Positions 7,199 to 32,931 of a stretch of DNA of 64,000 bases are shown piece after piece. Positions within the stretch are counted from its first letter, which is position 1; every line of letters begins with the position of its first letter. The stretch is from Escherichia coli (lineage in GTDB: Bacteria; Pseudomonadota; Gammaproteobacteria; Enterobacterales; Enterobacteriaceae): the NCBI RefSeq assembly GCF_003334335.1, contig NZ_QOWQ01000006.1; one strand, given 5' to 3'. The notes under the pieces were generated by a model. It was not told the origin of the DNA, did not search any database, and saw nothing but the letters and a program-made list of their open reading frames with translations. The position numbers and the translations under genes were made by a program.

Positions 7199-7410
7199 TT
7201 GCCTGATGCGCTACGCTCATCAGGCCTACAAAATCTATTGCAACATGTTGAATCTTCGTGCGTTTGTAGGCCGGATAAGGCGTTCACGACGCATCCGGCA
7301 TTAGGTGCTCAATGCCTGATGCGCTACGCTTATCAGGCCTACAAAATCTATTGCAACATGTTGAATCTTCATGCGTTTGTAGGCGGATAAGGCGTTTTCG
7401 CCACATCAGG
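7199..7410. repeat. REP/BIME cluster: two near-identical ~105-bp units, each holding inverted REP palindromes
   Basis: Unit gcctgatgcgctacgct(c/t)atcaggcctacaaaatctattgcaacatgttgaatcttc(g/a)tgcgtttgtaggc... occurs at about 7199-7311 and again at 7313-7410; classic REP core. Confidence 0.7.
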
Positions 7411-10268: not shown

Positions 10269-11153
10269 ATGCCGCGTTTAACCGCCAAAGATTTCCCACA
10301 AGAGTTGCTGGATTACTATGACTATTACGCTCACGGGAAAATCTCGAAACGTGAGTTCCTCAACCTTGCGGCGAAGTGCGGTAGGCGGGATGACGGCATT
10401 AGCGTTGTTTGATTTGCTCAAGCCAAATTATGCGCTGGCGACTCAGGTAGAGTTTACCGACCCGGAAATTGTTGCTGAGTACATCACGTATCCTTCGCCA
10501 AATGGTCACGGCGAGGTGCGGGGTTATCTGGTGAAGCCCGCAAAGATGAGCGGCAAAACGCCAGCCGTAGTGGTGGTGCATGAGAATCGTGGACTGAATC
10601 CGTATATCGAAGATGTGGCACGGCGAGTGGCGAAGGCGGGGTATATCGCCCTGGCACCTGACGGCTTAAGTTCCGTTGGAGGTTATCCGGGAAATGATGA
10701 TAAAGGTCGTGAGCTGCAACAGCAGGTTGATCCAACAAACTGATGAATGATTTCTTTGCCGCAATTGAGTTTATGCAACGCTATCCGCAAGCGACAGGCA
10801 AAGTGGGTATTACCGGATTTTGCTATGGCGGTGGCGTATCGAACGCGGCGGCTGTCGCGTATCCGGAACTGGCCTGCGCGGTGCCGTTTTATGGTCGTCA
10901 GGCACCCACTGCCGATGTGGCGAAGATTGAAGCGCCTTTACTACTCCACTTCGCGGAACTGGACACCCGAATCAACGAGGGCTGGCCTGCTTACGAGGCG
11001 GCGTTGAAAGCCAATAATAAGGTTTATGAGGCGTATATCTATCCGGGGGTTAATCACGGATTCCATAATGATTCCACGCCCCGTTATGACAAATCTGCCG
11101 CCGATCTTGCCTGGCAAAGGACACTGAAATGGTTCGATAAATATCTCTCCTGA
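10269..11153 (+). pseudogene. yghX: dienelactone-hydrolase-family protein disrupted by two frameshifts
   Basis: Reading frame jumps between three ORFs (10224..10412, 10318..10743, 10743..11153); GAGGA RBS before ATG at 10269; second shift lies in the A-run ccaacaaactgatg near 10740. Confidence 0.65.
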
Positions 11154-23185: not shown

Positions 23186-23878
23186 CTAGTGATAACCACG
23201 CGCGGTCATAAAATCCGTAATCGCTTTTTCTGCATCAACCAACACCTGTTCCAGTGGCTGATTGGCATCGATATCAACCAGTTGTGCACCACCAAAGGTT
23301 AACTGTGGCGTTATGGCAATCTTCCTCGCCAGCGATTCCCGTTTATGGTCGGGTTTACGTGCACAGGCAACTTCAAGGTCAACATTGAGTTTGATGACCA
23401 GATCAGGCTTATGGCTCGCCATCCAGTGAAACGCTTTACGTTCCTGGCTTGCCAGCCATGAGACAAAACGACCACCTTCAACGTTAGGTGGGAACACCGT
23501 ACCATCGTAAGCGCCAGGAATTTGGTCCTGAGGATAACGGTCGGTTAGAACAATTAACCCGCGACGACGACAGGCAAGCATATGACGAAAGCGCAGTAAG
23601 CGACGGGCGACAAACGCTGTAATTACCAGCGCCGGAACTGGTCCAGGCAATTTTTTTGCTGTTTTCACCTGATTTCGTTCAATTGTTTTATGTAAGGATT
23701 TTCCCATCAACGGTAATTTTGTCACTGCACGACCGACATTTCCGGCCTGTTTTCCTAAATGAACTCTTTCGGCAGCACCATATTTTTCGACAACGGTAAT
23801 AAGATGTTCACACACCGTTGACTTGCCTGAACCATCGCTACCAATAACGGCAATTAATGGAGGTGTTATTGACTGCAT
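23186..23878 (-). CDS. yghT: P-loop NTPase, kinase-like (Walker A plus DRYP motif)
   Basis: 230 aa; [11 protein letters not shown]alker [10 protein letters not shown] motif; paralogous to yghS and yghR. Confidence 0.8.
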
Positions 23879-24051
23879 GAATATATCCTTTAATTTAAAT
23901 ATCCATTAAAAATATTTATTTGGTTAATATGTTTTTATGAAAGCGTAATTCAGGTCAATGTCACAATTAACCATTGTCACAATAAGGTTGAACGGATATT
24001 CTGAGCACGGACCACGTAATATTCAATACATTATTTACTGCCGGGTTTTTC

Positions 24052-24765
24052 GTGAATCAACGTAATATGTCAATAATTAATTCCACGCCAGTGCGTGTTA
24101 TTGCCATTGTAGGATGTGATGGTTCAGGTAAATCGACCCTCACGGCAAGCCTGGTAAATGAACTGGCAGCAAGAATGCCAACAGAACACATTTATCTCGG
24201 GCAATCGTCCGGGCGAATTGGCGAATGGATTTCACAGCTCCCTGTTATTGGCGCACCTTTTGGGCGTTATCTGCGAAGTAAAGCGGCACATGTGCACGAA
24301 AAGCCCTCAACACCGCCTGGCAATATTACTGCACTGGTTATCTATCTGCTTTCCTGCTGGCGGGCGTACAAGTTTCGCAAAATGTTGTGTAAAAGCCAGC
24401 AAGGCTTTCTGCTCATCACCGACCGCTACCCGCAGGTTGAAGTGCCGGGGTTTCGCTTTGATGGCCCGCAATTGGCAAAAACCACGGGCGGTAACGGTTG
24501 GATAAAAATGTTAAGGCAGCGCGAGCTGAAGCTGTACCAATGGATGGCATCTTATTTGCCCGTATTGTTGATTCGTCTTGGCATTGATGAACAAACCGCG
24601 TTTGCGCGTAAACCTGACCACCAACTGGCAGCGTTACAGGAAAAAATCGCCGTTACGCCGCAACTGACATTCAATGGCGCAAAGATCCTTGAACTGGATG
24701 GGCGACACCCCGCCGATGAAATTCTGCAAGCGTCACTACGCGCAATTCACGCCGCGCTTTCCTGA
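24052..24765 (+). CDS. yghS: P-loop NTPase, kinase-like
   Basis: 237 aa; VGCDGSGKSTL Walker A; ITDRYPQVE motif. Confidence 0.8.
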   Translation: MNQRNMSIINSTPVRVIAIVGCDGSGKSTLTASLVNELAARMPTEHIYLGQSSGRIGEWISQLPVIGAPFGRYLRSKAAHVHEKPSTPPGNITALVIYLLSCWRAYKFRKMLCKSQQGFLLITDRYPQVEVPGFRFDGPQLAKTTGGNGWIKMLRQRELKLYQWMASYLPVLLIRLGIDEQTAFARKPDHQLAALQEKIAVTPQLTFNGAKILELDGRHPADEILQASLRAIHAALS

Positions 24766-24796
24766 TCACCAAAATGGATAGGGGATGATTTAACGA

Positions 24797-25555
24797 ATGG
24801 ATGCACTACAAACTCAAACTGTTAATAGTACAACCGCGCCGCAGCCCAACTACATTCCGGGGCTGATTGCGGTGGTCGGGTGTGATGGCACCGGTAAATC
24901 CACACTGACCACCGACCTGGTGAAATCGCTGCAACAACACTGGCAAACCGAGCGGCGCTATCTGGGGCTGCTCTCCGGCGAAGACGGCGACAAAATCAAA
25001 CGATTGCCGTTGGTTGGCGTCTGGCTGGAACGGCGACTGGCGGCCAAATCCTCGAAAACCCAAAGCATGAAAACCAAATCTCCGGCGCTATGGGCGGCGG
25101 TGATTATGTACTGCTTCTCGCTGCGAAGAATGGCGAATCTACGCAAGGTTCAGCGACTGGCGCAAAGTGGCGTTCTGGTGGTCAGCGATCGCTTCCCGCA
25201 GGCTGAAATTTCGGGCTTTTATTATGATGGACCGGGGATTGGCGTCGAACGTGCGACCGGGAAAATCAGCATGTTTCTGGCGCAGCGCGAACGGCGTTTA
25301 TACCAACAAATGGCGCAATATCGCCCGGAATTAATTATTCGCCTGGGCATTGATATTGAGACTGCCATCTCCCGCAAGCCTGACCATGACTATGCCGAGC
25401 TGCAGGACAAAATCGGTGTCATGTCGAAGATTGGCTATAACGGCACAAAAATTCTTGAGATTGATTCCAGAGCGCCCTACAGCGAAGTGCTGGAACAGGC
25501 ACAGAAGGCGGTTTCTCTGGTTGCCATCGTTTCTGACCGCCGAAGTTTAACTTAA
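24797..25555 (+). CDS. yghR: P-loop NTPase, kinase-like
   Basis: 252 aa; VGCDGTGKSTL Walker A; VSDRFPQAE motif. Confidence 0.8.
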   Translation: MDALQTQTVNSTTAPQPNYIPGLIAVVGCDGTGKSTLTTDLVKSLQQHWQTERRYLGLLSGEDGDKIKRLPLVGVWLERRLAAKSSKTQSMKTKSPALWAAVIMYCFSLRRMANLRKVQRLAQSGVLVVSDRFPQAEISGFYYDGPGIGVERATGKISMFLAQRERRLYQQMAQYRPELIIRLGIDIETAISRKPDHDYAELQDKIGVMSKIGYNGTKILEIDSRAPYSEVLEQAQKAVSLVAIVSDRRSLT

Positions 25556-25600
25556 GGCTGGCGGGATACTTTTTACTATCAACGATAAGGTCAGGCTGAA

Positions 25601-26950
25601 TTGGCGGGTTTTAACATCAAACATTGGTTTGCAGATGGCGCGTTTCGCACCATTATTCGCAATAGCGCCTGGTTAGGCTCCAGTAATGTCGTGAGCGCCT
25701 TGCTGGGTCTGTTGGCGCTCTCGTGTGCCGGTAAAGGGATGACGCCCGCCATGTTTGGCGTACTGGTGATTGTGCAATCGTACGCCAAGTCGATCAGCGA
25801 TTTTATTAAGTTTCAGACATGGCAACTGGTGGTTCAGTACGGAACACCAGCATTAACCAACAATAATCCGCAGCAATTCCGCAATGTCGTCTCATTTTCC
25901 TTCTCGCTGGATATCGTCAGCGGCGCGGTGGCGATTGTCGGTGGCATTGCCTTACTGCCATTCCTTTCCCATTCATTAGGTCTGGATGACCAAAGTTTTT
26001 GGCTGGCAGCGCTCTATTGCACGCTCATTCCTTCAATGGCTTCCTCCACGCCGACCGGCATTCTGCGTGCGGTAGATCGCTTCGATTTAATTGCTGTACA
26101 GCAGGCGACGAAACCTTTTCTGCGCGCAGCGGGGAGCGTCGTAGCCTGGTATTTTGACTTTGGTTTTGCGGGTTTTGTTATTGCCTGGTACGTGTCGAAT
26201 CTGGTTGGCGGCACCATGTACTGGTGGTTTGCCGCGCGCGAATTACGCCGCCGAAATATCCATAACGCCTTCAAATTGAATCTGTTTGAGTCTGCCCGAT
26301 ACATTAAAGGCGCGTGGAGTTTTGTCTGGTCAACCAACATTGCCCACTCCATCTGGTCGGCGCGTAACTCGTGCAGCACAGTGTTGGTGGGGATCGTGTT
26401 AGGACCCGCTGCCGCCGGGTTATTTAAAATCGCCATGACATTCTTCGACGCCGCCGGAACGCCAGCGGGTTTGCTGGGTAAAAGTTTTTACCCAGAGGTG
26501 ATGCGTTTAGATCCGCGCACCACCAGACCGTGGTTGTTAGGTGTGAAGTCCGGTTTACTGGCGGGCGGAATCGGTATTCTGGTGGCGCTCGCGGTGTTGA
26601 TCGTCGGCAAGCCGCTCATTTCGCTGGTGTTTGGCGTTAAGTATCTCGAAGCGTATGACCTGATTCAGGTGATGCTGGGCGCAATTGTGATTTCGATGCT
26701 GGGCTTCCCTCAGGAGTCATTGCTATTGATGGCGGGAAAACAGCGCGCTTTTCTCGTGGCGCAAACCATCGCCTCAATCGGCTACATCGTATTGCTGTTC
26801 ATGTTCTGTCATCTGTTTGGTGTGCTGGGAGCAGCGTTTGCTTACTTCGGTGGGCAATGTCTGGACGTGGCGCTCTCGTTAATTCCAACCTTAAAGGCAT
26901 TTTTTCAGCGCCATTCCTTGCTTTATAACGCAGCCGGAGAGAAATCCTGA
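25601..26950 (+). CDS. yghQ: MOP-superfamily (Wzx/MurJ-like) polysaccharide/lipid flippase-type membrane protein
   Basis: 449-aa polytopic membrane ORF; TTG start as listed, true start uncertain; stop overlaps next start (TGATG). Confidence 0.75.
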   Translation: MAGFNIKHWFADGAFRTIIRNSAWLGSSNVVSALLGLLALSCAGKGMTPAMFGVLVIVQSYAKSISDFIKFQTWQLVVQYGTPALTNNNPQQFRNVVSFSFSLDIVSGAVAIVGGIALLPFLSHSLGLDDQSFWLAALYCTLIPSMASSTPTGILRAVDRFDLIAVQQATKPFLRAAGSVVAWYFDFGFAGFVIAWYVSNLVGGTMYWWFAARELRRRNIHNAFKLNLFESARYIKGAWSFVWSTNIAHSIWSARNSCSTVLVGIVLGPAAAGLFKIAMTFFDAAGTPAGLLGKSFYPEVMRLDPRTTRPWLLGVKSGLLAGGIGILVALAVLIVGKPLISLVFGVKYLEAYDLIQVMLGAIVISMLGFPQESLLLMAGKQRAFLVAQTIASIGYIVLLFMFCHLFGVLGAAFAYFGGQCLDVALSLIPTLKAFFQRHSLLYNAAGEKS

Positions 26951-27774
26951 TGATGAGAAAATATTTCCCGCTTGAGGCGAGCGAGCGTCTATTTGTTGCG
27001 ATTGAAGAAGATGATGTCGTTGATGCACAGGTTAGTTTGCCGCCGACTATTGCACTAAGTTGTACCACCGAAATCATTCATGATAATTACGCGTTATGCC
27101 TGCAATTCTGGCTCAATGGCGTTGATCGTCAGGAGTTACTGCGTTTAGTTCGCAAACAAGCCAAAGGCGATGAGCTGACTGCTGATGAGCGCAAACAATT
27201 TAAATACATGCGAGCGCGCTACAAGCACCTGCGTTTTGCGCAACGGCTGTATTTAAAGAAGCATCAGGCCGGATTTTTATTCGGCAAAACGACCGTTTTT
27301 CTGGGGCGTTTTCAGGACGGCTTTCGTAACGGTAAGAAAAATATTGTGTCGTATTACGGCAACCTGTTACGGATTTATTTAAGCTCTCCGGTCTGGTCGT
27401 TGGTGAACTATTCATTACGCCATAGCCAGTTAGAAAGCGTAAGCAGTTTTATTGCCTATCGGCAAAAGCAAATGCATACCCTGAAAGAGATTATTGCCAA
27501 ACCGCGACTAACCGGTAGGGAATTTCATGATGTGCGAAAAATCATCAGCCAGCAGGTTTCTTATTACGACACCTTAAGATCGCTTGATCCTGAAAATAAA
27601 GAGGCGTTACAGATATCCCGCTTCCTCGCCGCCATTAATGGCCTGATGGGAGATAAACACGACGACATGGTGGCGGATGATATGGAAAACCGCCAGTCGT
27701 ATGATGCACCGGTGGCGCTGGATAGCGATATTCGTCAGCGCTTAGAGCTGCTGATTTCGCGTTTTCCGCTATAG
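26950..27774 (+). CDS. hypothetical protein, no recognisable domain
   Basis: 274-aa ORF translationally coupled to yghQ; basic/charged, no transmembrane segment or nucleotide-binding motif seen. Confidence 0.55.
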   Translation: MMRKYFPLEASERLFVAIEEDDVVDAQVSLPPTIALSCTTEIIHDNYALCLQFWLNGVDRQELLRLVRKQAKGDELTADERKQFKYMRARYKHLRFAQRLYLKKHQAGFLFGKTTVFLGRFQDGFRNGKKNIVSYYGNLLRIYLSSPVWSLVNYSLRHSQLESVSSFIAYRQKQMHTLKEIIAKPRLTGREFHDVRKIISQQVSYYDTLRSLDPENKEALQISRFLAAINGLMGDKHDDMVADDMENRQSYDAPVALDSDIRQRLELLISRFPL

Positions 27775-27782
27775 CCGGAGCA

Positions 27783-28346
27783 ATGATGTCATCTCGTTTG
27801 ATTATTGCGTTGATTATCATGCTCTTAGCCCCGGGTGTGCAGGCACACAATTTCGTCACTGGCAAAACGGTTACCCCTGTTTATATCCAGGAAGGCGGCG
27901 AGCTGCTTCTGAATAGCGACGACGAAATTCACTACCAAAAGTGGAACAGCACACAATTAGCGGGAAAAGTCCGCATTATTCAGTATATCGCCGGGCGTAA
28001 GTCGGCGAAGAAAAAGAACTCACTGTTAATTAAAGCGGTTGAAGCGGCAAACTTTCCGCAGGATCGTTTTCAGCCCACCACCATTGTGAACACCGATGAT
28101 GCCATCTTTGGTACTGGCTATTTTGTTGTTGGCAAAATCGAAAAAAATAAACGCCGCTATCCGTGGGCGCAATTCGTTATTGACGGCAATGGACAGGGAC
28201 GCGTTGCCTGGCGCTTGCCGGAGCAGAGTTCAACCATTCTGGTGCTGAATAAAGCCGGGCAAATTCAGTGGGCAAAGGACGGCAGCCTGACGCCGGAAGA
28301 GGTAGATCATGTCATTGCGTTGGCGCAGAAACTGATCAATGAATAA
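27783..28346 (+). CDS. YtfJ-family periplasmic protein (signal peptide)
   Basis: 187 aa; N-terminal signal peptide MMSSRLIIALIIMLLAPGVQA; motifs TTIVNTDDAI and WAKDGSLTPEEV resemble E. coli YtfJ as I recall it. Confidence 0.55.
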   Translation: MMSSRLIIALIIMLLAPGVQAHNFVTGKTVTPVYIQEGGELLLNSDDEIHYQKWNSTQLAGKVRIIQYIAGRKSAKKKNSLLIKAVEAANFPQDRFQPTTIVNTDDAIFGTGYFVVGKIEKNKRRYPWAQFVIDGNGQGRVAWRLPEQSSTILVLNKAGQIQWAKDGSLTPEEVDHVIALAQKLINE

Positions 28347-28376
28347 AAAACTCAAAGGATTGAGGGCGTTAGTGAG

Positions 28377-29447
28377 ATGAAGCTGGTTGAACACTACATC
28401 ATGCGTGGTACGCGCCGTCTGGTGCTGATTATCGTCGGTTTTCTGATCTTTATTTTCGCCAGCTACTCCGCACAGCGTTATCTGACCGAAGCGGCAAATG
28501 GGACATTAGCTCTTGATGTTGTGCTGGATATCGTTTTCTACAAAGTACTGATTGCACTGGAGATGTTGTTACCTGTTGGTCTGTATGTGTCAGTTGGCGT
28601 GACGCTAGGGCAGATGTATACCGACTCGGAAATTACCGCTATCTCTGCGGCGGGGGGCAGTCCGGGACGCTTGTACAAAGCCGTTCTTTATCTGGCGATA
28701 CCGCTAAGTATTTTTGTCACCCTTCTGTCGATGTATGGTCGTCCGTGGGCTTATGCGCAGATTTATCAACTGGAGCAGCAGTCGCAGTCGGAGCTGGATG
28801 TTCGCCAGTTGCGGGCAAAGAAATTTAACACTAACGATAACGGACGAATGATCCTTTCGCAGACGGTTGATCAGGATAATAATCGCCTGACTGACGCGCT
28901 GATTTATACTTCTACTGCCAATCGAACCCGCATTTTCCGCGCCCGTTCGGTTGATGTGGTTGACCCATCACCCGAGAAACCGACCGTTATGTTGCACAAC
29001 GGCACTGCCTATCTTATCGATCATCAGGGGCGTGATGACAACGAACAGATCTACCGTAATCTGCAATTACATCTGAATCCGCTGGATCAAAGCCCTAACG
29101 TCAAACGCAAAGCGAAATCGGTCACGGAGCTGGCGCGCTCCGTCTTTCCAGCCGATCATGCCGAACTGCAATGGCGGCAAAGCCGTGGCCTGACCGCATT
29201 GTTGATGGCGCTGCTGGCCATTTCATTAAGTCGGGTAAAACCGCGGCAAGGGCGATTTTCAACGTTATTGCCACTGACGTTGCTGTTTATTGCCATTTTT
29301 TATGGCGGTGACGTCTGCCGTACGCTGGTGGCTAACGGCGCGATTCCCCTCATTCCTGGTTTGTGGTTAGTACCCGGACTCATGCTAATGGGCCTGCTGA
29401 TGCTGGTCGCACGCGACTTCTCTTTGCTGCAGAAATTTTCCCGATGA
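28377..29447 (+). CDS. LptF/LptG-family (YjgP/YjgQ) permease
   Basis: 356 aa; N-terminal transmembrane helices, large periplasmic insert, C-terminal transmembrane helices, as in LptF/LptG. Confidence 0.7.
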   Translation: MKLVEHYIMRGTRRLVLIIVGFLIFIFASYSAQRYLTEAANGTLALDVVLDIVFYKVLIALEMLLPVGLYVSVGVTLGQMYTDSEITAISAAGGSPGRLYKAVLYLAIPLSIFVTLLSMYGRPWAYAQIYQLEQQSQSELDVRQLRAKKFNTNDNGRMILSQTVDQDNNRLTDALIYTSTANRTRIFRARSVDVVDPSPEKPTVMLHNGTAYLIDHQGRDDNEQIYRNLQLHLNPLDQSPNVKRKAKSVTELARSVFPADHAELQWRQSRGLTALLMALLAISLSRVKPRQGRFSTLLPLTLLFIAIFYGGDVCRTLVANGAIPLIPGLWLVPGLMLMGLLMLVARDFSLLQKFSR

Positions 29448-30523
29448 ATGTTTTCAGCCGCTATTTAATCCGTCATCTCTTTCTCGGTTTTGCCGCCGCC
29501 GCAGGGCTATTGCTGCCGCTTTTTACCACCTTCAACCTGATTAACGAACTGGATGATGTCAGCCCGGGCGGTTATCGCTGGACTCAGGCGGTGCTGGTGG
29601 TGCTAATGACCTTACCGCGCACACTGGTCGAACTTTCGCCATTTATCGCCTTATTGGGAGGGATTGTCGGCCTGGGGCAGTTATCGAAAAACAGTGAGCT
29701 TACCGCCATTCGCAGCATGGGGTTTTCTATCTTCCGTATTGCACTGGTGGCGCTGGTTGCAGGGATATTGTGGACTGTTTCGTTAGGCGCGATAGATGAG
29801 TGGGTAGCGTCGCCATTACAGCAACAGGCGTTGCAAATCAAATCGACCGCCACCGCGTTGGGGGAGGACGATGACATTACCGGCAATATGCTGTGGGCCA
29901 GGCGTGGTAATGAATTTGTGACGGTGAAATCGCTGAACGAGCAGGGCCAGCCGGTGGGCGTGGAGATTTTTCATTATCGCGACGATCTCTCGCTCGAATC
30001 CTACATTTATGCACGCAGTGCCACCATTGAAGACGACAAAACGTGGATCCTGCATGGTGTGAATCATAAAAAATGGCTGAATGGCAAAGAAACGCTGGAA
30101 ACATTAGATAATCTTGCCTGGCAATCGGCCTTCACCAGTATGGATCTTGAAGAGTTATCAATGCCGGGCAATACTTTTTCTGTCCGTCAGCTTAATCATT
30201 ACATCCATTATTTGCAGGAAACCGGGCAACCCAGCAGCGAATACCGCCTTGCACTGTGGGAAAAACTGGGGCAACCCATCCTGACCCTGGCGATGATTTT
30301 GCTGGCTGTGCCGTTTACCTTTAGCGCCCCGCGCTCGCCAGGGATGGGTAGCCGTCTCGCTGTAGGTGTCATCGTTGGCTTACTCACCTGGATCAGCTAT
30401 CAAATCATGGTCAATCTGGGATTGCTATTTGCGTTGAGCGCACCTGTTACCGCGCTCGGTTTACCGATAGCGTTTGTGCTGGTGGCGTTGAGCCTGGTGT
30501 ATTGGTATGACAGACAACATTAA
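29444..30523 (+). CDS. LptF/LptG-family (YjgP/YjgQ) permease, second paralog
   Basis: ORF 29363..30523; start placed at MNVFSRYLIRHLF (ATG 29444 overlaps upstream stop, ATGA); same topology as previous gene. Confidence 0.7.
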   Translation: MNVFSRYLIRHLFLGFAAAAGLLLPLFTTFNLINELDDVSPGGYRWTQAVLVVLMTLPRTLVELSPFIALLGGIVGLGQLSKNSELTAIRSMGFSIFRIALVALVAGILWTVSLGAIDEWVASPLQQQALQIKSTATALGEDDDITGNMLWARRGNEFVTVKSLNEQGQPVGVEIFHYRDDLSLESYIYARSATIEDDKTWILHGVNHKKWLNGKETLETLDNLAWQSAFTSMDLEELSMPGNTFSVRQLNHYIHYLQETGQPSSEYRLALWEKLGQPILTLAMILLAVPFTFSAPRSPGMGSRLAVGVIVGLLTWISYQIMVNLGLLFALSAPVTALGLPIAFVLVALSLVYWYDRQH

Positions 30524-30524
30524 A

Positions 30525-30551
30525 CCCGCCGTGGCGCAACACCACGGCGGG
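30525..30551. terminator. GC-rich hairpin between convergent operons (probable bidirectional terminator)
   Basis: cccgccgtgg-cgcaacac-ccacggcggg lies between the LptG-like stop (30523) and the reconstructed aminotransferase stop (30558). Confidence 0.5.
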
Positions 30552-30557
30552 CTCACA

Positions 30558-31737
30558 TTACTGCTTCAGAGTAGCAAATGCCTGAATGATGGCATCGATT
30601 TGCTCACGACTGTGAGCAGCGTTTACGCTACAGCGCAGCAGCGTGATGCCTGCAGGCGCGGCAGGTGGCAGGTGGCAGGATAAGATTCACATAAACGCCC
30701 AGCGAAATAAGCTCGCGCCAGATGCGTAAACCGTCCTCTTTCGAACCGATTATTACCGGCACTACCGGGCTAATATGTGAACTTAACTCATAACCCAGTT
30801 TTTGCAGACCGTCATACAGATGGTTGGCATTATCCATCAGCTTTTGCCGCAGCTCTGGTTGTGTGGCAATAGTTCTTAACGACGAGCGCACGGTCGCAAT
30901 GCAGGACGGAGAAGGAGAGGCGGTAAAAATATACGGGCGGCTGCCGTAGCGCAGCACTTCCATCGCTTCCGAACCGACAGCAAAACCGCCAATCGAGGCC
31001 AGACTTTTACTGAAGGTGCCAACGATAATATCCACATCATCTTCAACGCCGACAGCTTCAGCCAGTCCGCGCCCCGTTGCGCCTAACACGCCAAACGAAT
31101 GCGCTTCATCGACAATCAAATAACCACCGAGACGACGTTTGATATCAACAATTTCCGCTAACGGCGCAACGTCACCGAGCATGCTGTAGATACCCTCAAC
31201 GATGATAATCGCCTCTTTCGCCCGTTCACCGAGGCGAACCATGCGCCGTTCCAGATCTTTAGCATCGTTATGGCGGAAACGAATAATTTCCGCGCCACCG
31301 AGAGAACAGGCGTCATAAATACTGGCGTGGCTGTCGGCATCCAGTAACACCACGGCGTTATGGTCGGCAAGTGCGCTGATGACGCCTAAATTAGCGGTAT
31401 AACCGGTTGAAAAAACGATAGCGGTAGGGCGATTGAAAAACTCGGCAATCTCTTTCTCTAACGCCAGGTGCGGCGCATAACTGCCGTTTGCCATACGAGA
31501 ACCGGTGGTGCCGGTACCTTGGGCCGCTAACGCGGCCTGACCTTCGCTGATGGCATCATGATTAAAGGTTAAACCGAGATAATTATTGGTCCCGGCCAGA
31601 ATCACTTTTTTATTGCCGATCCGGCCTTCGGTGGCGGAATACACTTCATCAATACAGGTGCCAAACGGTGTTAACCCGTTGTCACTAAATTGCAGTCGCT
31701 CGCCAGCAAGGCGCGCATATTTATCGTATAGCCCCAT
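30558..31737 (-). CDS. alpha-oxoamine synthase (serine palmitoyltransferase/BioF/KBL family), frameshifted near the 3' end; longest intact frame is 30628..31737
   Basis: PLP-lysine motif GTFSKSLASIGGF; listed ORF ends ...ILPPATCRACRHHAAAL; a 7-bp tandem duplication at about 30661-30674 shifts frame; removing one copy gives ...PPAAPAGITLLRCSVNAAHSREQIDAIIQAFATLKQ; ATG overlaps ACP stop (TAATG). Confidence 0.75.
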
Positions 31738-31985
31738 TATTTATTCTCCAGCCATGGAAGTAGAGTTTCCATTAATTGCGCAGGGGTTTTGACATCCAGC
31801 AGAATATTAATAGGAATGGAAATATCGAATCTGTCTTCCAGCATCATTAAGAGATCCATCACTTTGATCGACTCCAGGCCAAGATCGTTGACGAGATCGC
31901 TGTCGGGCTTAATTTCCACACCGTTTTCGACCAAATCCTGTAAACAGGAAAGGATGTAATCCATTACTATTTCACGATTTACCAT
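31737..31985 (-). CDS. acyl carrier protein
   Basis: 82-aa acidic ORF with phosphopantetheine attachment motif DLGLESIK. Confidence 0.8.
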   Translation of the reverse strand: MVNREIVMDYILSCLQDLVENGVEIKPDSDLVNDLGLESIKVMDLLMMLEDRFDISIPINILLDVKTPAQLMETLLPWLENK

Positions 31986-32016
31986 AGAAACGTTAACACA
32001 CCTTTAAACAAGACAA

Positions 32017-32931
32017 TCAAAATAGCCCGTTGCGTAATGCGTGTTCCAGGCTAATCCCGGGAAACCAATTAATATCTTCAGAAATACGGTTATTACTTGC
32101 CGACCAGTCGGCGTGGGTTAATTCACGAATTTTCGAGCGGGTCAGCATAGGTTCTTTACCTGCCAGGCGACTCAACGCGGTACTGATATCCGCAAGGCCG
32201 GTGAGTACCGGCAGAGGAATGCCAACCATTCGCACGGAACCGCAACGGGCGTCGGCGGCAAGTTGCTGTACGCGTTGCCAGTCATAGCCGCCGGCGACGC
32301 CATCGCATAATTCATAGGTTTGCGTCTGTATAGTTTCGGCGCTTAACCACTGACCCACTGCTTGCGCGAAATCGGTGACGTGCAGAAAAGAGAGCTGTGT
32401 ATCTGGCGCACCAAGTCGTGGCAGCAGGCCGCGCAGCATCCAGTCAAACAGCGGTTTTAACTCTTTATCGCCGGGACCATACACGGCTGTCGGGCGAAAA
32501 ACGCCCAGCGTAATTTCGTCCGCCATTGCTGCCAGTCGTTGCTCGGCGACGTATTTGGATTTTGCATACCAGGAGAGCTCGGGATGGCGCGCCGCCAGCG
32601 AAGAGATAAACAGAAAACGTTGGCAAAAGCCGCTCTCTTTTGCTGCTTGCATCAGGCGCAGGCTGCCGTCAACGTTACAGCGGGTGAAAATCTCTTCTTT
32701 GTGCCCGCGCACTTGCCCGGCGCAATGGACCACTACGCTGGCTCCGGCAACCAGCTCGCTAAGTGAATGAGTATCTTCCAGCGAACCGCGCACCCAGGTG
32801 AGATTATCATTGACGTGAGCGCGGGCAGTACGCGTCAATGCGCGAACGTGAAAGCCGCGGGCGAGCAGGTTATCGATAATATATTTACCGATAAACCCGG
32901 TAGCGCCCGTCACCGCGACAGTTTGATTCAT
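32017..32931 (-). CDS. NAD(P)-dependent epimerase/dehydratase-family oxidoreductase (candidate keto-reductase)
   Basis: 304 aa; Rossmann motif VTGATGFIG; catalytic YAKSK (YxxxK); ATG overlaps upstream stop. Confidence 0.75.
   Translation of the reverse strand: MNQTVAVTGATGFIGKYIIDNLLARGFHVRALTRTARAHVNDNLTWVRGSLEDTHSLSELVAGASVVVHCAGQVRGHKEEIFTRCNVDGSLRLMQAAKESGFCQRFLFISSLAARHPELSWYAKSKYVAEQRLAAMADEITLGVFRPTAVYGPGDKELKPLFDWMLRGLLPRLGAPDTQLSFLHVTDFAQAVGQWLSAETIQTQTYELCDGVAGGYDWQRVQQLAADARCGSVRMVGIPLPVLTGLADISTALSRLAGKEPMLTRSKIRELTHADWSASNNRISEDINWFPGISLEHALRNGLF

Follow-up and report, generated by a model that had tools for sequence, protein, structure and literature searches.

A 7-bp tandem duplication truncating the serine palmitoyltransferase gene spt in an Escherichia coli lineage, very probably a loss-of-function allele made by slippage

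The spt operon and its surroundings

The DNA analysed here, a 64-kb stretch that we call the window, is an Escherichia coli chromosome segment carrying yqhG, hyb, gss, pitB, the genes from yghT to yghO, glc, sslE and gsp. Its sequence is all but identical to that of phylogroup-A-like strains, MS 124-1 and EC416 among them. On its minus strand lies spt, the gene for serine palmitoyltransferase (SPT), which is annotated under this name in thousands of RefSeq genomes. It closes the aasR-epi-acpR-spt operon, within the yghT-yghO sphingolipid cluster. Together with yghO (aca), the four genes of this operon form the dihydroceramide cluster of E. coli (PMC9386255). As in sphingolipid clusters of the Rhodobacteria type, an acyl carrier protein (ACP) gene directly precedes spt, and aasR, epi and aca are found nearby. 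With the exception of spt itself, the genes of this pathway are intact in the window (Table 1). No gene follows spt in the operon, and just beyond its native stop there is a terminator-like hairpin, so a lesion in spt is not expected to be polar on genes downstream.

Table 1. Features of the spt locus (window coordinates) and catalytic residues of its product (numbering of E. coli SPT)
Feature	Position	Strand	State	Basis
Terminator-like hairpin immediately 3' of the native stop of spt, where this gene and an lptG paralogue converge	30521..30555	-
Native 3' end of spt left beyond the new stop: final 22 sense codons and the TAA at 30558-30560	30558..30627	-	out of frame
Truncated spt ORF, 369 aa, with TAG stop at 30628-30630	30628..31737	-		ORF as sequenced
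Period-7 tandem run, GGCAGGT x2.9 on the plus strand; coding strand CCTGCCA CCTGCCA CCTGCC	30660..30679	-		repeat scan
acpR, specialised acyl carrier protein	31737..31985	-	intact	PMC9386255
epi, NAD-dependent epimerase/dehydratase family, presumptive keto-sphinganine reductase	32017..32931	-	intact	PMC9386255
aasR, fatty acyl-AMP ligase / specialised acyl-ACP synthetase	32928..34616	-	intact	PMC9386255
yghO (aca), predicted N-acyltransferase of dihydroceramide synthesis	35026..36168	+	intact	PMC9386255
Histidine opposite S. paucimobilis H159	H137		retained in 369-aa product	alignment to 2JG2
Aspartate opposite S. paucimobilis D231	D210		retained in 369-aa product	alignment to 2JG2
Histidine opposite S. 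paucimobilis H234	H213		retained in 369-aa product	alignment to 2JG2
PLP lysine, opposite S. paucimobilis K265	K244		retained in 369-aa product	alignment to 2JG2
Arginine opposite S. paucimobilis R390	R366		lost from 369-aa product	alignment to 2JG2

Another group of genes adjoins the spt operon at 23186-30523. This block encodes yghT/yghS/yghR-like ATP-binding proteins, a hypothetical protein, a YtfJ-family protein, a full-length polysaccharide-type flippase of 449 aa (yghQ, truncated in K-12), as well as a second LptF and a second LptG. The sphingolipid cluster of Caulobacter includes LptC2/F2/G2 and a flippase, which have been proposed to act as sphingolipid exporters (PMC11324152), and the gene content of the block hints at a putative dedicated sphingolipid export route in E. 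coli.

Comparison with MS 124-1 also revealed differences outside spt. A G/A difference at 26987 changes Arg13 to His in a hypothetical protein (26950-27774), and an A/G difference at 35217 is synonymous at Val64 of yghO. In the spacer between exbD and yghA (~7285-7400), the window is 113 bp longer than MS 124-1 and its flanks match the same MS 124-1 segment twice, which looks like a difference in the copy number of a REP-type intergenic repeat. Lastly, yghX (~10269-11153) is annotated in MS 124-1 as a frameshifted pseudogene, and the window has the same sequence save for one SNP at 10683.

A heptamer duplication truncates serine palmitoyltransferase

The original prediction, made from the sequence alone, was that the conserved C-terminus of an alpha-oxoamine synthase is put out of frame by a 7-bp tandem duplication. 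When we read the tract and the open reading frame again from the sequence, both were as described. On the plus strand the tract is GGCAGGTGGCAGGTGGCAGG, that is, GGCAGGT GGCAGGT GGCAGG, to which Tandem Repeats Finder assigns a period of 7, 2.9 copies and 100% matches. It is the sole run in the window with at least period + 4 matched positions at periods 4-12, and a period-7 run of such length appeared in 1 of 300 shuffles of the window. The wild-type tract, GGCAGGTGGCAGG, consists of two hexamers one base apart (GGCAGG-T-GGCAGG) and thus already amounts to 1.9 copies, which is why the window reaches 2.9. Compared with each of the complete E. coli genomes examined, the window has a surplus of one 7-bp unit.

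The interval between the ATG (31737) and the native stop (30558) measures 1180 nt, that is, 1173 + 7, so the arithmetic on which the predicted frameshift was based holds. Removal of one unit yields a 390-aa protein ending in ...LILPPAAPAGITLLRCSVNAAHSREQIDAIIQAFATLKQ*, in which the conserved C-terminus is regained. In contrast, the ORF as sequenced encodes 369 aa and ends in ...LILPPATCRACRHHAAAL*. The frame shifts at codon 358: residues 1-357 are native, whereas residues 358-369 (TCRACRHHAAAL) come from the shifted frame and are followed by the TAG, so that translation ends 70 nt short of the native spt stop. The part of the lost C-terminus that includes Arg366 lies just upstream of the stranded 3' end and is likewise read out of frame. 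The expectation that the last 30 or so residues would be replaced was therefore right about the replacement, the exact exchange being 33 native residues for 12 foreign ones.

The assignment to the alpha-oxoamine synthase family (Pfam PF00155) also stands, and it can be refined to serine palmitoyltransferase by the NCBIfam SPT equivalog NF047599 and by the match to the spt product of BL21. The repaired 390-aa protein scores 599.2 bits on NF047599, against a cut-off of 500, and in the profile search the spt protein stayed under the respective cut-offs of the bioF, kbl and ALAS models. It is identical to WP_000524970.1, the annotated spt product of E. coli BL21. The SPTEc enzyme ECD_02854 of BL21(DE3) forms 3-oxo-sphinganine, with acyl-AcpR as its preferred substrate (Padilla-Gomez et al, 2022, PMC9386255); the activity is thus known for ECD_02854 of BL21(DE3), and the sequence compared here is WP_000524970.1 of BL21. 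BL21 has the same aasR-epi-acpR-spt operon as the window, with yghO/aca nearby, and its DNA is 99.5% identical to window positions 30500-31800, consistent with a match everywhere except for the 7 bp. Unlike BL21 spt, the window allele contains the extra GGCAGGT and encodes 369 aa that lack the last 33 residues, Arg366 included.

E. coli SPT is a full-length homologue of Sphingomonas paucimobilis SPT (PDB 2JG2; E = 4e-111). The PLP lysine and the His/Asp/His residues that characterise SPT are all present and are all encoded upstream of the frameshift, whereas the C-terminal arginine of the enzyme is present in the repaired allele and absent from the 369-aa product (Table 1). The catalytic residues and the C-terminal motif PPAxPAG...LLRCS...A(A/E)H are conserved in the SPTs of S. 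paucimobilis (2JG2), S. wittichii (2X8U) and E. coli, and the lost segment can be aligned across SPT, KBL, AONS, ALAS and CqsA structures. Unlike the Sphingomonas enzymes, the window allele has no native residues from position 358 on. In S. paucimobilis SPT, Arg390 takes the serine carboxylate once palmitoyl-CoA binds and is needed after external aldimine formation, and mutation of the analogous Arg370 of S. wittichii SPT abolished the detectable substrate quinonoid (PMC6148460). The truncated protein matches NF047599 at profile positions 1-361 of 394 only and scores 44 bits below the repaired protein. Because both Arg366 and the family-conserved C-terminal segment are lost, we infer that the 369-aa enzyme is dead or unstable. 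With the Arg390 counterpart absent from its product, spt of the window is predicted from sequence to be a disrupted member of the SPT family, a pseudogene rather than a functional gene. A dead enzyme would leave the lineage unable to make 3-oxo-sphinganine by the spt pathway.

It could be argued that a functional product is made after all, either because the 369-aa protein is active or because ribosomal or transcriptional recoding regains the native frame. Such a reading would draw on the retained PLP lysine and His/Asp/His residues and on the profile score of the truncated protein, which at 554.9 bits is still above the family cut-off of 500. However, the counterpart of the missing arginine is required for catalysis (PMC6148460), and conservation of the lost segment extends to the whole alpha-oxoamine synthase family. 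As for recoding, inspection by eye of the stretch between codon 358 and the TAG stop revealed no slippery heptamer or homopolymer able to support a -1/+2 shift. We consider a functional product extremely unlikely.

The retained part of the protein also differs from the Sphingomonas enzyme at codon 354 (about 30676-30678, minus strand), where E. coli SPT has Leu354 and S. paucimobilis SPT has Arg378, within a loop that reads LPPAAP in the former and RPPATP in the latter. Arg378 of S. paucimobilis is a mobile arginine; in the external aldimine it forms a salt bridge to the carboxylate of serine. The presence of Leu354 in its place may be related to the acyl-AcpR preference of E. coli SPT.

Distribution of the allele

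The original prediction had proposed comparing the copy number of the repeat among related genomes, and this comparison showed it to be invariant. We probed 5426 complete RefSeq E. coli genomes, 4104 of which carry spt. The wild-type probe matched all 4104, and no -7, +7 or +14 allele was found among them. The best identity to the 120-nt probe of the tract as sequenced (+7) was 94.2% (113/120), so that none of the 4104 spt-carrying genomes has the duplication; across the 5426 complete genomes, the artificial -7 allele reached at best 94.7%, with no genome attaining the carrier threshold of >=95%, and the artificial +14 allele at best 90.4%, below carrier level in all. The sampled matches were of wild-type length apart from that of strain BS-04. 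Given this invariance in 4104 genomes, the state of the window is rare and derived.

BS-04 (NZ_CP172819.1) gave the one weak match to the wild-type probe, and its annotation breaks the entire cluster into short frameshifted pieces. Real decay and an error-rich assembly would both account for this, and the strain is therefore uninformative on the site at 30660.

A search of species-representative genomes with the 21-nt duplicated junction returned 41 matches, all in unrelated, mostly GC-rich taxa and none in Escherichia, which we discarded as chance or low-complexity similarity. In public metagenome contigs, the 31-nt duplicated junction had no matches, compared with 42 for the wild-type control, a null result that shows the rarity of the allele only.

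The exact 369-aa protein was nonetheless present in a collection of 15 billion proteins, where it occurred only in Logan assemblies of public runs, on 11 contigs. We read five of these (ERR13330971, SRR30938087, ERR10114333, ERR10140859 and SRR27904302). All aligned to the window end to end without gaps, and therefore all five contain the duplication, with 0-2 SNPs each relative to the window. These SNPs lie at 35217 in two contigs (the G mentioned above), at 33944 and 22302 in one, and at 27358 in another. Counting the window, the duplication is thus found on at least four haplotypes; some of the 11 runs are possibly repeat sequencing of one strain, though the SNPs differ.

These data bear on the two options that had been left side by side at the outset, a real slippage mutation or a sequencing or assembly error. 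In the latter case the true genome would read GGCAGGTGGCAGG, and the extra 7 bp would come from assembly or polishing, which would agree with the absence of the allele from every RefSeq complete E. coli genome and every public metagenome contig searched. Against this, 11 contigs from separate assemblies of different runs code for precisely the truncated protein, and the five that we read are gapless against the window and have differing private SNPs. At least four haplotypes from independent read sets are not explained by an artefact of a single assembly. Moreover, comparison with the near-identical strain MS 124-1 over 42.7 kb gave 11 SNPs and one indel, the 7-bp insertion (at 30660); no other indel is present in that part of the assembly. 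To our knowledge, clean 7-bp tandem duplications are also not typical sequencing errors. An artefact is thus most improbable, and it is very likely that spt of this lineage bears a genuine, heritable 7-bp tandem duplication, a loss of function produced by slippage.

Origin of the duplication and loss of the sphingolipid pathway

Replication slippage between the two GGCAGG hexamers would add exactly one GGCAGGT unit, and this is the most likely origin of the duplication. Short tandem duplications made by slippage at direct repeats are exemplified by the CTGG hotspot of lacI. Like those duplications, the unit in the window is flanked by a short direct repeat, GGCAGG, and the outcome is a frameshift allele, here predicted to be null. 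Unlike the lacI hotspot, the site is no hotspot at the population level, as none of the 4104 genomes vary there. All carriers examined have nearly the same background, as a single event would leave it. The allele belongs to a small, rare lineage and appears to be recent, given the intact state of the rest of the pathway and the near identity of the carriers.

It had also been suggested that the pathway might be phase-variable or counter-selected. The phase-variable part would require a contingency switch, in which the heptamer tract grows and shrinks at high frequency and turns sphingolipid synthesis on and off. The mutant tract, with 13 matched positions at period 7, could in principle revert by slippage with greater ease than it arose, and E. 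coli frequently loses the pathway. Yet the variation in copy number among close relatives that marks a contingency locus was not seen in the 4104 complete genomes, and the carriers are confined to a single background. Known phase-variable tracts are, in addition, far longer than the 1.9 copies of the wild type. We therefore regard a switch as very unlikely. Only slightly less doubtful is that the duplication represents a reversible off-state, selected in a gut lineage in which synthesis was turned off under pressure from phage, host immunity or an envelope-targeting agent. If this were true, the pathway could be regained by precise loss of 7 bp, which the 13-base tandem homology would make more frequent, and the tract would be a low-copy incipient contingency locus. 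The other part of the suggestion, a counter-selected or dispensable pathway, is plausible, as losses are frequent.

No match to the spt segment searched was found in 1290 of the 5426 complete genomes (about 24%). In K-12 MG1655 (NC_000913.3 3129043-3132408, corresponding to window ~26000-36168), an IS5 element (IS5LO) lies between yghO and the truncated yghQ, and the whole lptF2/lptG2-spt-acpR-epi-aasR segment is missing. Strain 2023CK-01509 (NZ_CP141736.1) has an independent disruption, with IS1A inserted at the 5' end of spt. In contrast to the K-12 deletion with IS5 and to the IS1 insertion in 2023CK-01509, the lesion in the window is a 7-bp duplication that leaves the rest of the cluster intact. 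It is plausible that the sphingolipid cluster is a dispensable, repeatedly lost accessory pathway in E. coli.

Taken as slippage-made loss of function, the duplication is an ordinary strain-level allele of a known and characterised gene, arisen by a textbook mechanism, and it adds a point-mutational case beside those losses of the sphingolipid cluster in E. coli that are linked to IS elements. In annotations, spt of this lineage should be called a pseudogene. Carriers are predicted to be without 3-oxo-sphinganine or ceramide made by the spt pathway, and such strains offer natural spt-null controls for comparison with near-isogenic wild types, for example MS 124-1 and EC416.
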